From the NCBI GenBank assembly GCA_963422395.1, contig OY729431.1, positions 1,184,001-1,248,000 on the forward strand: DNA of 64,000 nt, read 5' to 3'. A program made the position numbers and the translations under genes. The DNA comes from Vicinamibacteria bacterium (lineage in GTDB: Bacteria > Acidobacteriota > Vicinamibacteria > Marinacidobacterales > Marinacidobacteraceae). The notes beneath the pieces were generated by a model. That model made no database searches. It was given only the letters and a program-made list of their open reading frames with translations, and was not told the origin of the DNA. Below are positions 20,261 through 63,894 of this stretch, one piece after another (the first letter of the stretch is position 1; each line of letters opens with the position of its first letter).

Positions 20261-20356
20261 GGAACCCTCCGGGCGGAGGGGCGCGGATTGTAGAGGGGCG
20301 GGCTTACGGACCGAGCGGTTCGAGCGGTTCGAGCGCTCCGAGAGCGGGGCGTCAGG

Positions 20357-21177
20357 ATGGCGTCGGGCGTTCTCGGGGGAAGAGTGAGGATGCCCCGCTC
20401 CCGAAGCGCCCGGCGCTGAGCGCCGCCCTCGAACAGGTGGATCAGGAGATCCTGGACGCCTGGGCGCGGCGGGACGCCATCACGGTGGCGATCGGGAGGG
20501 TGAAGCAGGAGTCCCGCCGGCCCATCCACGATTCCTCGCAGGAGGCGCGGGTCCTCGAAAGGGCCCGCGGCCTCGCCGCCGGCAGGGGCATCTCCCCCGA
20601 CCTCGCCGCGGCTTGATCTTCGACATCGTTCGGTCAAGGCGCCTCTCGCGCGTGGACTCGCCGCCCTGGTCGAGAGCGGCTGCCACGCGGCTTCGGTGCA
20701 TCCGATGTTCGGCCCGGATGCCCATGTCCTCCACGGCTGCCATGTGCTGGTCATGGATGCCGGCCGGTCGGAGGCCGCAGCCGAAGCCGCCTCTCGGTCT
20801 TCTCCGGCACCATGGCCGAGATCCTGTGCCTCCCGTTGGCGGAGCACGACCCGCTGATCGCCTATGTCCTCGGGCTCTCGCACGCCCTGAATCCGGCTTT
20901 CGTCACCGCCCTCATAGGGAGCGGGGAGCAGGCCCCGCGGCTCGCCCGGCTGTCCAGCGTCACCTTCGAACGCCAGCTGCGGGTCGCGGCGGCAGTCACC
21001 GGGGAGAACCCGCGCCTCTACTATGAGATCCAGCACTCCAATCCGCACGGCCCGGCGGCGATCCATCACCTCGCGGCCGCGGTTTCCCGCCTCGCTGCGG
21101 TCATCCACGATGACGACGAGGCTGCCTTCGTCCGCCTCATGAAGGCAGGGCGCGAGTACGTCCTCGGTCGCCGCTGA
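20357..21177 (+). pseudogene. tyrA: Degenerate chorismate mutase / prephenate dehydrogenase (T-protein)
   Basis: CM fragment LEQVDQEILDAWARR…IGRVK…EARVLERAR, then PDH fragments LIFDI/SVK, SVHPMFGP, EHDPLIAYVLGLSH in different frames; Rossmann GxGxxG segment absent. Confidence 0.75.
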
Positions 21178-22612: not shown

Positions 22613-22773
22613 CCTTCCGAGTCTATCCAAGCAGCTCGGAGAGAAAGCCCCCGCTTCGCCAGCAGGCGCAAGTGAGGCAAAGCGCTGAGGCGGCGGCCCG
22701 GCAGGGCGGTTCCCTGCTCGGTTTCCGGAGAGTGCGCCCCGGAAGCCTCGAACGACCGGAATAGAATCGGGGG

Positions 22774-23679
22774 ATGCGTTCCCTCCTGCTCTTCGTCTCT
22801 CCTTTTCTCGCCACTCTCTTCCTGGCTCCGGCACTCGCCGCTCCGCAGGCGGAAGAAGATGCCGAGCGGCGGATTCTCGTGCATGTCGCGAACACCCTGC
22901 AGCCTGGCGAGAGGCTGCTGCTCTCGGAGCTCGTCGAGCGGTTTCAGGCGCCCGAAGAACAGCGGGCGCTCGATCGACTGAACGATGTCTTTTTTCGCAC
23001 TCCGTTGTTCCTGGTCGAGTTCGAAGGCCGCGAGGGGCGGCTGCCGACGCTCGGCGAAATCGCCGGGCAGTTCTCGCTCTACGGTGAGGAGGCAGCCGAC
23101 ATCGTGCTGCGGATCATGGAATCGGATCCACGGGTGCCGAAGTTCCTCGTGCGGGATGGAGAAGGAAAGCTGGTCTCGATCGACCAGGAGCTGGTGCGGG
23201 CCGACGAACGGTTTGCGCGCGCCGTGAGCCGGAGCCTGACCGGCTGGGAGGGCCGCAGCCTGCCGGCCATCGTCGGCGAGCGGTTCGGGGGCGGCGAAGC
23301 AGCGGTGGCCGACCTGATGGACGATGCCACCCTGGTCTATGTGTGGTTCACGAACTGCCCTCCCTGCGTCCAGATCGCGCCGGTGCTCCAGGCGCTCCAC
23401 GAGGACCTCGGAAGCGACGGGCTCGCGATCATCGGTCTGAACGCCGACCGGGTTCTCAAACTGCCCTTCGGGGACGAAGACCGTGCCGCGCACCAGGAGA
23501 AAGGCGGGGTCACCTTCGAAAATCTCCACTTGCGAGCGGAAGACCGCGCCGCCCTCGGCAATGTGAACATCTTTCCGACCCTGTTCCTCGCCTCGCGCGA
23601 TGGAACGGTCGCCCGGCACTTCGTGAACTTCCAGGCGCGCGAGGAACTCGAACCCGAAATCCTCGCACTGCTGCAATAG
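22774..23679 (+). CDS. TlpA/ResA-like thiol-disulfide oxidoreductase with N-terminal extension
   Basis: Signal peptide; VWFTNCPPC; IFPTLFL..RDG. Confidence 0.85.
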   Translation: MRSLLLFVSPFLATLFLAPALAAPQAEEDAERRILVHVANTLQPGERLLLSELVERFQAPEEQRALDRLNDVFFRTPLFLVEFEGREGRLPTLGEIAGQFSLYGEEAADIVLRIMESDPRVPKFLVRDGEGKLVSIDQELVRADERFARAVSRSLTGWEGRSLPAIVGERFGGGEAAVADLMDDATLVYVWFTNCPPCVQIAPVLQALHEDLGSDGLAIIGLNADRVLKLPFGDEDRAAHQEKGGVTFENLHLRAEDRAALGNVNIFPTLFLASRDGTVARHFVNFQAREELEPEILALLQ

Positions 23680-23794
23680 TTCTGGCAGCCGCTGCTCGCG
23701 GCCGCTGTGCCCCGGGTTCGACGATGGATAGCGGAAGGATGGGGGCCGTCCCTGCCTTGCAGAAGGCCCGGGTGCGAGGACCTCTCTCGTGGCC

Positions 23795-24258
23795 GGGCGC
23801 GGCGCAGCGGGGGAAAGTGTGAAAGGGGGGTTTCCCCCGTTCACGAGATGGTGGCTCAGAATCCGAACTGGCTGCCTGTGGCAGGAGTTCGGATTCCGGC
23901 GCGAAGCGCCGGGCGGTTCGGGAGCGGTGCGTCTCGCTCATCCCGCTCGCCCCATGGGAGTTAGACACGCTACGGCATCACGCCCCGCTCGAGGGTCTCG
24001 ATCCTCATCTGTGGCCGGAAAAACGTCTGTTGCGCCCGAGCCTCAGGATCGGGCGCGGCGCAGCGGGGGAAAGTGTGAAAGGGGGGTTTCCCCCCGTTCA
24101 CGAGATGGTGGCTCAGAATCCGAACTGGCTGCCTGTGGCAGGAGTTCGGATTCCGGCGCGAAGCGCCGGGCGGTTCGGGAGCGGTGCGTCTCGCTCATCC
24201 CGCTCGCCCCATGGGAGTTAGACACGCTACGGCATCACGCCCCGCTCCCGAACCGCTC
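23795..24258. repeat. Tandem structured repeat array A (~256-bp unit, ~1.8 copies)
   Basis: GGGCGCGGCGCAGCGGGGGAAAGTGTGAAAGG… recurs at 23795 and 24051, near-identical for ~195 bp; homologous to 63090-63730. Confidence 0.92.
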
Positions 24259-24267
24259 AGCTCTGAG

Positions 24268-24296
24268 TTGACAAAATATCACTCATATCTTATAGT
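24268..24296 (+). promoter_or_regulatory. Sigma70-type dnaK promoter with overlapping inverted repeats
   Basis: TTGACA (24268-73), 17-bp spacer, TATAGT (24291-96); TGAGT-N12-ACTCA and TAGTTG-N4-CAACTA overlap it. Confidence 0.8.
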
Positions 24297-24363
24297 TGCG
24301 TCCAACTAAGGGCCGGGTCGTCCCGGTTCAGTATTCGTTTTCGATTCAGGAGTTCCAAGGCGC

Positions 24364-26289
24364 ATGAGCAAGATCATCGGTATCGATCTGGGTACCACGA
24401 ACTCGGTCGTCGCGGTGATGGAGGGTGGGCAGCCCACCATCATCCCGAACGCCGAGGGGGGGCGAACCACCGCCTCGGTAGTGGGAATCGCCAAGTCCGG
24501 CGAACGGCTCGTCGGGGAGGTGGCGAAGCGGCAGGCCATCACCAACCCCGAGAACACCGTCTTCTCCATCAAGCGCTTCATGGGGCGGCGTTACGACGAG
24601 GCCCAGGAGGAACGGGGGACGGCTCCCTACGAAATCATCCGCAAGGACGACGGCATCGAAGTGTCGATGAGCGGCAAGGGCTACAGCCCGCCAGAAATCT
24701 CGGCCATGGTGCTGCAGAAGATGAAGGCGTCCGCCGAGAAGTACCTCGGCGAGACCGTTGAGCGGGCGGTCATCACCGTCCCGGCCTACTTCAACGATTC
24801 GCAGCGGCAGGCCACCAAGGACGCCGGCGAAATCGCCGGACTCGAGGTCGTGCGCATCGTGAACGAGCCCACCGCGGCCGCGCTCGCCTACGGCCTCGAG
24901 AAGCAGAAGAGCGAGAAGATCGCGGTTTACGACTTCGGCGGCGGGACCTTCGACATCTCGATCCTCGAGGTCGGAGAGGGGGTGGTGGAGGTTCGTTCCA
25001 CGAATGGAGACACCTACCTCGGCGGAGACGACCTCGACAAGCGGGTGCGCGAATGGATCGTCGCCGAGTTTCTGAGGTCTGAGGGGATCGACCTCAGCGC
25101 CGATCGGATGGCGTTCCAGCGGCTCACCGACGCCGCCGAGAAGGCCAAGGTCGAGCTCTCGACCACTCACGAGACGGAGATCAACCTGCCGTTCATCACC
25201 GCCGACGCCTCCGGGCCGAAGCATCTGGTGCTGACTCTCTCCCGATCGCGGCTCGAGTCCCTGATCGGCGAACTCCTGGAGCGGACCCGCAAGCCCTGCC
25301 AGCAGGCGATCGAGGACGCCGGGCTCGGCGGGAGTTCCGTCGATCAGGTGGTGCTCGTCGGTGGCACGACTCGGATCCCGCGGGTCCAGCAACTCGCGGA
25401 GGAGATCTTCGGAGTCGAACCGCACCAAGGGGTGAACCCGGACGAGGTCGTCGCTCTCGGCGCCGCGATCCAGGCGGGAGTGCTCGGGGGCGAAGTCAAG
25501 GACCTGCTGCTGCTCGATGTCACCCCGCTGTCGCTCGGCATCGAGACTCTCGGCGGGGTCTTCACGCCGCTCATCGAGCGAAACACCACGATCCCGCATC
25601 GGGCCAGCAATGTCTTCTCGACCGCTAGCGACAACCAGACCGAGGTCGAGGTCCATGTGCTCCAGGGCGAGCGGTCCATGGCTTCCGACAACCGAACCCT
25701 CGGGAAGTTCAAACTGGTGGGGATTCCGCCGGCGCCGCGCGGGGTTCCGCAGGTCGATGTGGCCTTCGACATCGATGCCAACGGCATCGTGAATGTCTCG
25801 GCGAAGGACCAGGCGACCGGGCGGGAGGAGGCGATCACCATCACCGCCTCGAGCGGACTCAGCAAGGACGAGATCGAGACGATGAAAGCCGAAGCGGCCT
25901 CCAACGAAGACGCGGACCGGCAGCGCCGCGAGGATGTCGAGTTCCGGAACGAAACCGATGCCCTCGCCCACCAGGTCGAGAAGCTGCTGGAAGAAAACCG
26001 CGAAAAGATCGAAGGTTCCGATGCGGACACGATCGGCAAGGCGGTGTCGGCGGCGCGCGCGGCGCTCAAGGACGGCGACATGGACCGAATTCGCTCCGCC
26101 CGGGCCGAGCTGGAGAAGGCGAGCCACCGGCTCGCGGAAGTCATGTACCGGAAGACTTCGGGCTCCGGGGAAGAGGCTGCCTCAGATGCCCCGCCGCCCC
26201 CGCCGCCTCCACCCGGCGGTAAGAAGAGCAAGGGGAACGGCGCCGCCGACGGCGACATCATCGACGCCGAGGTGGTAGGAGACAACTGA
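24364..26289 (+). CDS. dnaK: Molecular chaperone DnaK
   Basis: [44 protein letters not shown]. Confidence 0.98.
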
Positions 26290-63005: not shown

Positions 63006-63089
63006 CTGACGAACCGAATCTCGCCCTGCGGGGCTCAGCGCTAGCGGGGCGTCCTTCCCATGGAGTATCTGCCGCGATAGAGCCGATGT

Positions 63090-63730
63090 TTCAGAATCCG
63101 AACTGGCTGCTGTGGCAGCAGTTCGGATTCCTGGCGCGGAGCGCCGGGCGGTTCGGGGGCGGGGTGTCCCGCCTTCCCACGAGAGTGCGAGATGCAACCT
63201 GACATCACACCCCGCCGGAGAGGGCCTCGATCCTCATCCGTGGCCCGGAAAACATCTGATGCGGCCGAGCCTGTGGCTCGGGAGCGTCGCAGCGGGGGAA
63301 AGTGTGAAAGGGAGTTTCACCCCCGTTCACGGATTGGCGATTCAGAATCCGAACTGGCTGCTGTGGCAGCAGTTCGGATTCCCGGCGCGGAGCGCCGGGC
63401 GGTTCGGGGGCGGGGTGTCCCGCTCTTCCCACGAGAGTGCGAGATGCAACCTGACATCACACCCCGCCGGAGAGGGCCTCGATCCTCATCCGTGGCCCGG
63501 AAAACATCTGATGCGGCCGAGCCTGTGGCTCGGGAGCGTCGCAGCGGGGGAAAGTGTGAAAGGGGGTTTACCCCCGTTCACGGATTGGCGATTCAGAATC
63601 CGAACTGGCTGCTGTGGCAGCAGTTCGGATTCCCGGCGCGGAGCGCCGGGCGGTTCGGGGGCGGGGTGTCCCGCTCTTCCCACGAGAGTGCGAGATGCAA
63701 CCTGACATCACACCCCGCCCCCGAACCGCC
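63090..63730. repeat. Tandem structured repeat array B (251-bp unit, ~2.6 copies)
   Basis: TCAGAATCCGAACTGG recurs at 63091, 63342, 63593; homologous to array A. Confidence 0.93.
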
Positions 63731-63816
63731 TGGTGCCGAAGGGGGGACTCGAACCCCCACGGGATAACTCCCATACGCCCCTCAAGCGCACGTGTCTACC
63801 ATTCCACCACTTCGGC
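63731..63816 (-). tRNA. tRNA-Leu(GAG) with encoded CCA
   Basis: GCCGAAGTGGTGGAATGGTAGACACG…TTGAGGG…long variable arm…GGTTCGAGTCCC…TTCGGCACCA. Confidence 0.95.
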
Positions 63817-63894
63817 ATTCCACCACTTCGGCGGAGGCGAGCCCCCGCAGTCGGCGCGCCGGACGGCAGCCCGGAATCATAGGCGGCCCCGGGA

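Follow-up and report, generated by a model that had tools for sequence, protein, structure and literature searches.

A large, structured gene-end repeat dispersed through a Vicinamibacteria genome forms a tandem array beside dnaK

The tandem repeat in front of dnaK is a member of a new, unusually large and well-structured family of repeats dispersed at gene ends in the genome of a Vicinamibacteria bacterium. The window analyzed is a stretch of 64,000 nucleotides of contig OY729431.1 (positions 1,184,001 to 1,248,000), and coordinates below are those of the window unless a genome position is named. The genome is a single contig of 2.908 Mb with 68% G+C and a completeness of 93.8%. On balance, we favor the reading that this array (array A) is a lineage-specific insertion of a non-coding dispersed repeat that serves as a REP/BIME-like transcript-end or insulator module. 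The features in and around array A are as follows.

22774..23679, + strand: thioredoxin/AhpC-like gene, upstream of array A and co-oriented, ending 115 nt before the array
23791..23989 (genome 1207791-1207989), + strand: array A unit 1 (nhmmer, family profile 59-251; direct repeats)
23990..24256, + strand: array A unit 2, complete (nhmmer, profile from 4 to 260 or 262; consensus structure)
about 24019-24060, + strand: unit 2, A-rich stretch and helix H0
24065-24069, + strand: unit 2, G-run
24075-24101, + strand: unit 2, H1
24116-24153, + strand: unit 2, H2
24153-24169, + strand: unit 2, H3
24170-24189, + strand: unit 2, H4 5' arm
24190-24236, + strand: unit 2, H4 loop
24237-24256, + strand: unit 2, H4 3' closing arm
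24257..24267, + strand: conserved 3' tail of the element, here TCAGCTCTGAG, family consensus TCAGCCCGAG
24268..24296, + strand: dnaK promoter TTGACA-17-TATAGT, 11 of 12 matches (shuffles give 0.1)
24364..26289, + strand: dnaK (HSP70, E 3.5e-248), neighboring gene outside the element

A repeat search recovers about 1.8 head-to-tail copies with a period of 256-257 at 23794-24267, much as the earlier note on this DNA had described them. They appear as two sets of direct repeats, 23794-23838/24050-24094 (100% identity, spacing 256) and 23822-23990/24079-24247 (98% identity, spacing 257). Tandem Repeats Finder, run on the window, detected array B, described below, but not array A. Unit 1 is 5'-truncated or decayed; H1, H2 and H3 are present, as is H4 with its 5' arm, its loop and the 3' arm as far as the inner half, and the outer closing arm of H4 is missing. 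The long inverted repeat of the array pairs 24162-24189 with 24237-24264 (28 nt, 86% complementary, 47 nt between). As previously noted, this hairpin is closed in the last copy only, the identical 5' arm of unit 1 (23905-23932) having no partner of its own. The complete second unit is predicted to fold as RNA at -145.6 kcal/mol (z -5.2). The array does abut the dnaK promoter: the conserved tail, which carries a TGA on the opposite strand, ends at 24267 and the -35 box begins 1 nt on, at 24268. The promoter itself lies outside the element. Nine DNA data sets from six studies are listed as containing this sequence, and no RNA data set is; contigs from four runs were compared with window positions 22700-25000. 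These contigs break inside array A, with ends at 23823 and starts at 24056, and one of them wraps from 24049 back to 23794.

Two further members of the family lie in the window.

63085..63735, + strand: array B, same family (nhmmer profile, repeat search)
63085-63216, + strand: array B unit, profile 119-251
63218-63468, + strand: array B unit, profile 2-251
63470-63735, + strand: array B unit, profile 2-267
63731..63816, - strand: tRNA-Leu(gag), 3' end 1 nt from the closing end of array B
20333..20425 (genome 1204333-1204425), - strand: third family member, profile 165-260

Tandem Repeats Finder places array B at 63090-63719 (period 251, 2.5 copies), and H4 is closed in its last unit only. The third member consists of H3 and H4 followed by short tandem copies of the tail motif, with tandem 9-mers at 20307-20342 beside it. 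Tail-like short tandem repeats follow the element at genome 778284, 1336007 and 1204333, the last being this third member (TCAGTCTCAGTCTCGG..., three copies of GACCGCTCAGCCCGAG and three of CGCTCGAAC). Close to array B, a perfect 16-nt direct repeat, CATTCCACCACTTCGG, occurs twice at 63800-63831. The first of the two coincides with the 5' end of the minus-strand tRNA-Leu(gag), so a second copy of this tRNA end stands just upstream of the gene.

To search the whole genome, we used a family profile whose initial version was built from array B (63085-63735). A second-round nhmmer search gave 104 profile matches in 57 loci, which excludes chance as an explanation of the repeat in array A. BLAST with two units yielded 53 merged intervals totaling 17.9 kb, and the family takes up about 0.6% of the genome. 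A regular-expression scan for H3 returned mostly noise. Around the inferred replication terminus (~1.44 Mb), a 380-kb region (genome 1336778-1718733) holds no family copy.

A complete unit of about 260 nt is built, in order, of an A-rich stretch, H0, a G-run, H1, H2, H3, H4 and the tail. H1 is GTGAAAGGGGG/CCCCCKTTCAC and H3 is CCGGCGC-GNA-GCGCCGG. About ten copies carry a ~48-nt expansion in H2. H4 starts with GCGGTTCGGG (GCGG) and is a helix of 20-21 bp enclosing about 35-49 nt. The two ends of the element, CCGAGAGAG... and ...CCGCTCAGCCCGAG, do not form an inverted repeat.

The stem changes between the two arrays that had suggested a conserved structure are present in the sequence: GGGAGCGG/CCGCTCCC in A versus GGGGGCGG/CCGCCCCC in B, GCGT/ACGC versus GTGT/ACAC, and a GAA versus GGA loop in H3. 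H4 encloses 47 nt in array A, about 40 in array B, and this sequence is nearly constant per array. An alignment was made of 69 complete units, all distinct, of which 33 come from this genome and 36 from relatives; from it RNAalifold derives a consensus fold of five helices (H0-H4) with 53 pairs. Standard pairs fill 97.1% of the 3639 cells compared with a shuffle mean of 88.4%, 26 of the 53 pairs are changed on both sides (15.4 in shuffles), and there are 283 compensatory cells (81 in shuffles). None of 500 shuffles reached the observed value by any of the three measures. When the partner was moved by 1-3 columns, only 37-55% of cells paired. Substitutions are thus far from random with respect to pairing, and since the covariation exceeds both shuffled and slid controls with all units aligned, the structure is under selection, as the earlier note had supposed. 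H0, H2 and H4 are the covarying helices; H1 and H3 are conserved in sequence and hence uninformative on covariation. Across the three genera that carry the family, the helix bases, the G-run with H1, and H3 are near-invariant; H0 and the distal parts of H2 and H4 either covary or are free to change.

Units also resemble their neighbors. Pairs of units from one array (37) have a median identity of 0.946, pairs from different loci (1998) one of 0.795, which bears out the claim that units are homogenized locally, or are local duplicates. The closing arm (profile position 260) stands at the end of 46 of the 57 loci and of all 16 arrays with at least two long units, and first units start anywhere from profile position 1 to about 196. 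The internal junction is constant in this genome: the 3' arm of H4 breaks off after its inner half (...CGCCCCGCY) and the following unit begins there at position 1 (CGAGAGAG...). Because of this junction, H4 can be closed in the last unit alone. The array period is 251-257 nt in this genome; in relatives, arrays with periods of 105 and 212 nt are made from modules of the same element. One relative locus has a full element followed by four 105-nt H3-H4 modules, and another has 212-nt H1-H4 units, with a complete H4 in every unit of both. The arrays may have arisen by repeated local tandem duplication, through unequal recombination or slippage at the very stable hairpins, and the junction type of this genome would then be either inherited or recurrent. 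Two arrays with their flanking gene end (genome 1284945-1285720 and 2858616-2859601) are 96-98% identical and, from this match, appear to be a segmental duplication that took the array along.

To place the copies relative to genes, we took ORFs from a crude picker based on GC3 (1912 ORFs, covering 83% of the genome; a stricter version gave 1330) and tRNAs from ARAGORN. A converging gene or tRNA 3' end lies at -30 to +50 nt of the closing end in 22 of 47 cases. Random intergenic points gave a mean of 3.3 (sd 1.8), with a maximum of 10 in 2000 trials. The corresponding figure for the 5' side of the element is 9 of 57. Array A belongs to a minority class, 10 of the 57 loci, in which the closing end faces a promoter rather than a gene end. 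Three of the 52 tRNAs (Leu, Leu and Ser) are abutted by the element, with gaps of 1, 3 and 17 nt. All three (genome 1063838, 1247731, 2627555) are of the type with a long variable arm.

Copies also overlap coding sequence. On the opposite strand the element starts CTCGGGC-TGA-GCGG..., with a second TGA 21 nt further in, and the stop codon of several ORFs is one of these two TGAs. Seven unrelated ORFs share an element-encoded C-terminal tail in the variants ..SERSGNGA*, ..AERAGNGA* and ..SGSGAGR*. They lie at genome 413336, 857780, 1047918, 1884665, 2151831, 2449805 and 1722538, and include a SelB-like factor and a short-chain-dehydrogenase-like protein.

We also examined the orthologous sites in relatives. 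None of 25 relatives of the same family has the element in the 1.4 kb upstream of dnaK, though they conserve the promoter and its spacer. Array A is thus not ancestral to dnaK regulation. Likewise, the end of the SelB-like gene overlaps the element here, and the orthologues of 24 relatives end in short, unrelated tails with no element downstream. The earlier note had proposed comparison with empty orthologous sites. The absence at dnaK holds in all 25 relatives; as those compared belong to other genera, it establishes a lineage-specific gain rather than a clean empty site. Most of the 25 relatives keep the promoter as TTGACA-N17-TATA(C/G)T with the conserved spacer ..ATCACTCAYATC.. (window 24268-24340), and most also keep a motif in the dnaK 5'-UTR, CTAACTAAGG, followed by a hairpin. 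This is possibly an operator bound by a heat-shock repressor.

We searched 151 genomes of the class with a covariance model of the core (139 positions). The model matched this genome, all 15 genomes of a second genus and, with weaker scores, all three of a third. There were no matches in the eight genomes from four other genera of the same family, nor in 125 genomes from 18 other families of the class. Among these genomes the model finds the family in three genera only, all belonging to one family of Vicinamibacteria. In a scan of 185,579 species genomes a 20-mer gave at least 114 stretches, where a 25-nt degenerate motif had given none, and the matches listed are nearly all in MAGs labeled Acidobacteriota, Vicinamibacteria or Candidatus Marinacidobacterium. 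Among 125 loci from relatives, eight show no further similarity to the family, including records labeled Oscillospiraceae, Oscillibacter and Gemmatimonadetes.

Taken together, array A would be a lineage-specific insertion of a non-coding, non-autonomous dispersed repeat of about 260 nt, placed between the co-oriented thioredoxin-like gene and the conserved dnaK promoter. The distribution of the family suggests that it is mobile and spreads, or has spread, through the intergenic DNA of three related Vicinamibacteria genera. Copies would be kept preferentially where the H4 closing end butts on the 3' end of a gene or tRNA. Stop codons are available there on the element's opposite strand, together with a very stable hairpin, and so the element most likely serves, if active at all, as a transcript-end or insulator module.

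The unusually clean covariation over five helices points to a functional RNA or to a mobile element recognized through its structure. A possible, if unlikely, alternative is that the element encodes a structured + strand RNA that performs its own cellular function in cis or in trans, for instance as a protein-binding scaffold or sponge; this gene would have been multiplied in the genome, with arrays as multi-copy transcription units. The pattern of conservation, with H1, H3 and the G-run near-invariant and H0, distal H2 and distal H4 covarying or free to vary, is like that of functional RNAs. The wobble pairs fit as well: when the pairs predicted from each strand are pooled, 187 cells are G.U and 32 are A.C, and RNAalifold gives -84.9 kcal/mol and 53 consensus pairs for the + strand versus -63.5 kcal/mol and 34 pairs for the minus strand. 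As modeled, these statistics favor folding of the + strand, antisense to the abutting genes. Such folding counts against a 3'-UTR role in those genes, which predicts the opposite strand. However, the copies share ancestry, so the wobble cells are not independent and represent few events, with G.U recurring at about eight sites and A.C at one. Compared unit by unit, the minimum free energy is not decisive: the + strand has the lower energy in 14 of this genome's 34 units and in 25 of the 39 from relatives. On the minus strand, H0 followed by a T-run makes a canonical terminator in 18 of 36 relatives' copies and in 3 of 33 copies in this genome; no terminator-like site was found within arrays A and B. 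The strand evidence thus conflicts, the wobbles indicating the + strand and the abutting genes and relatives' terminators the minus strand. Further against an RNA gene, a scan of arrays A and B found no sigma-70-like promoter, copies are truncated to varying extents at the 5' end and run into the ends of unrelated ORFs, and orientation relative to upstream genes is even (28 versus 29 loci).

It is improbable, in our estimate, that the family is a new kind of RNA-like mobile element that needs no known transposase or reverse transcriptase and whose active form is + strand RNA or single-stranded DNA, possibly with a triple-helix core. New copies would be made from the fixed 3' end (H4 and the tail) with a variable 5' extent, and would insert preferentially at the exact 3' ends of transcription units or beside an existing copy, the latter giving head-to-tail arrays. 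A purine-motif triple helix serving as the recognition core could be formed by the near-invariant mirror repeat of purines GGGGGAAAG-TGT-GAAAGGGGG and the CCCCCTTTC that comes after it. In all copies a mirror repeat of the form GGGGG(A/T)A(A/T)G-TGT-GAAAGGGGG precedes H1, with CCCCCKTTCAC after it (window 24065-24101). The G-run segment is invariant across 111 copies from relatives; among the 55 copies here, nearly all its variation is exchange of A and T (15 and 25 cases). This pattern is the one expected of the third strand of a purine-motif triple helix, and could equally reflect linkage within subfamilies. An apparent covariation of the G-run segment with the 3' strand of H1 was set aside; it looks like subfamily linkage and is absent in relatives.

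To identify an enzyme that could move the element, we searched the genome for the main candidates. No transposase, reverse transcriptase or integron integrase linked to the family was found. There was no match to TnpB (PF07282; positive control), to the Y1 transposase/RAYT family (PF01797; the control matched 6 of 14 reference genomes), to reverse transcriptases (PF00078) or to IS110 (PF01548; positive control). An IS91 Y2 search was silent, and so was its control. An rve-type insertion sequence present in five copies, the one multi-copy insertion sequence observed, was dropped as the mobilizer, its ends being unrelated to those of the element. It is about 1.05 kb long, with three near-identical copies plus fragments (genome 1116715, 1740478, 1971443, 1563926 and 2568895) and ends GGCTGCTAG.../...CTAGCAGCC. 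Fragments resembling its ends adjoin several copies of the repeat, for instance near genome 2151912 and 2139171, so this insertion sequence may land in or beside the repeat. Eight tyrosine recombinases are encoded: XerC/XerD-type, phage-like and three ORFs of no family. In a family scan that covered seven of the eight, the best two are XerC/XerD-type (320 and 318 bits versus cut-offs of 335 and 330), and the integron integrase model TIGR02249 reached at most 126 bits versus a cut-off of 265. Three of the eight genes have an element locus within 2.5 kb, namely XerC, XerD and a short ORF that belongs to no family; none of the three adjoins a copy, and they were rejected as partners.

These searches bear on another alternative, that the element is a non-autonomous partner of single-strand DNA transposition of the REPIN/RAYT, IS200/IS605 or IS91 kind, its + strand hairpins being recognized. 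A strand-specific fold, a constant 3' end with a variable 5' end, and head-to-tail arrays would all suit such a mechanism. With neither a Y1 transposase nor TnpB in the genome, and no bias of orientation relative to replication (32 versus 25 loci), we consider it quite improbable.

The earlier note went beyond structure and local homogenization, both of which stand, to suggest that the segment within the long stem could be a locus-specific guide or target; arrays would then act like guide-RNA arrays. No other part of the element varies as much as the H4 loop, where the fold is least constrained. The loop has a majority fraction of 0.75 in this genome and of 0.47 in relatives, the arms one of 0.84-0.92 (0.91-0.92 in this genome); the loops thus vary more than the stems, contrary to the alternative the note had allowed for. 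However, the 33 loops of this genome are plainly homologous, diverged copies with two related consensus types, and the units of an array share their loop, as spacers do not. A genome BLAST with the loops found nothing outside the family, the best being 15-nt exact matches (E about 0.06), and a whole array B unit had no match in plasmids and phages. Neither the two loop cores named in the note nor the 20-nt H1 core motif of the family had an exact 20-nt match in IMG/VR viral contigs, an exact 20-mer scan being of low sensitivity. Variable segments that match foreign or genomic targets, the mark of CRISPR-like or guide arrays, were thus not found, and TnpB and IS110 are missing from the genome. 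With homologous loops and no outside matches there is no support for a guide or target role; that reading is already largely refuted and is very improbable. Just as implausible is that array A is a dedicated dnaK regulator, an upstream activating element or heat-sensing structure as its end 1 nt from the -35 box might suggest, as the element is absent there in 25 of 25 relatives with the same conserved promoter and is present at 56 other, unrelated loci.

As a dispersed gene-end repeat, the family has consequences for its host, which has a small genome and belongs to an uncultured, partly sponge-associated acidobacterial lineage. It rewrites gene ends, giving at least seven proteins a new C-terminal tail, and adjoins tRNAs and the promoter of the core chaperone operon. 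It also breaks short-read assemblies, which matters for the binning and annotation of these genomes. If a partner enzyme or + strand RNA is found, the family would be a tractable case of the spread and domestication of structured repeats outside the Proteobacteria.

At its gathering threshold, Rfam recognizes only two tRNAs in the window; the best models below it are generic hairpin (miRNA) models, far under threshold. A full-text literature search found no description of the family in the excerpts it returned. Tests for membership in REP/RAYT, MITE, attC, omega RNA, bridge RNA and retron families were negative. MITEs such as Correia/NEMIS and RUP are non-coding, dispersed and structured, and can overlap gene ends and add C-terminal tails. 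The family does all of this, but has no terminal inverted repeats and no parent insertion sequence was found for it in the genome. A CCCGAG-like motif occurs at both ends of the element, the 5' ends being too variable to define a target-site duplication.

The REP/BIME elements of Enterobacteria and the REPINs of Pseudomonas are high-copy extragenic palindromes at gene ends and between convergent genes, often in tandem mosaics, and REP/BIME elements have been proposed to stabilize or terminate transcripts. REPs are single palindromes of 20-40 bp that depend on a RAYT enzyme. Like REP/BIME, the family is high-copy, extragenic and near gene ends (57 loci; 22 of 47 closing ends). Unlike REP, its element is about 260 nt long with five helices, and H4 starts with GCGG rather than with the REP tag, GTAG or CGTC according to an excerpt of PMC3733652. 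It further differs from REP/REPIN in that the genome has no RAYT match and the element no replication-orientation bias. The other close parallel is with BOX. In Streptococcus pneumoniae, BOX is modular (A-Bn-C), with modules of 45-60 nt, the internal one repeated variably and the terminal ones completing the structure. In the same way, an internal module of our family is repeated in variable number and the terminal part completes the structure. The repeated module, however, is the whole 251-257-nt unit (105 or 212 nt in relatives), there is no sequence relation, and the phylum is a different one. By analogy, then, the element would work most like the mosaics of REP/BIME or of BOX.
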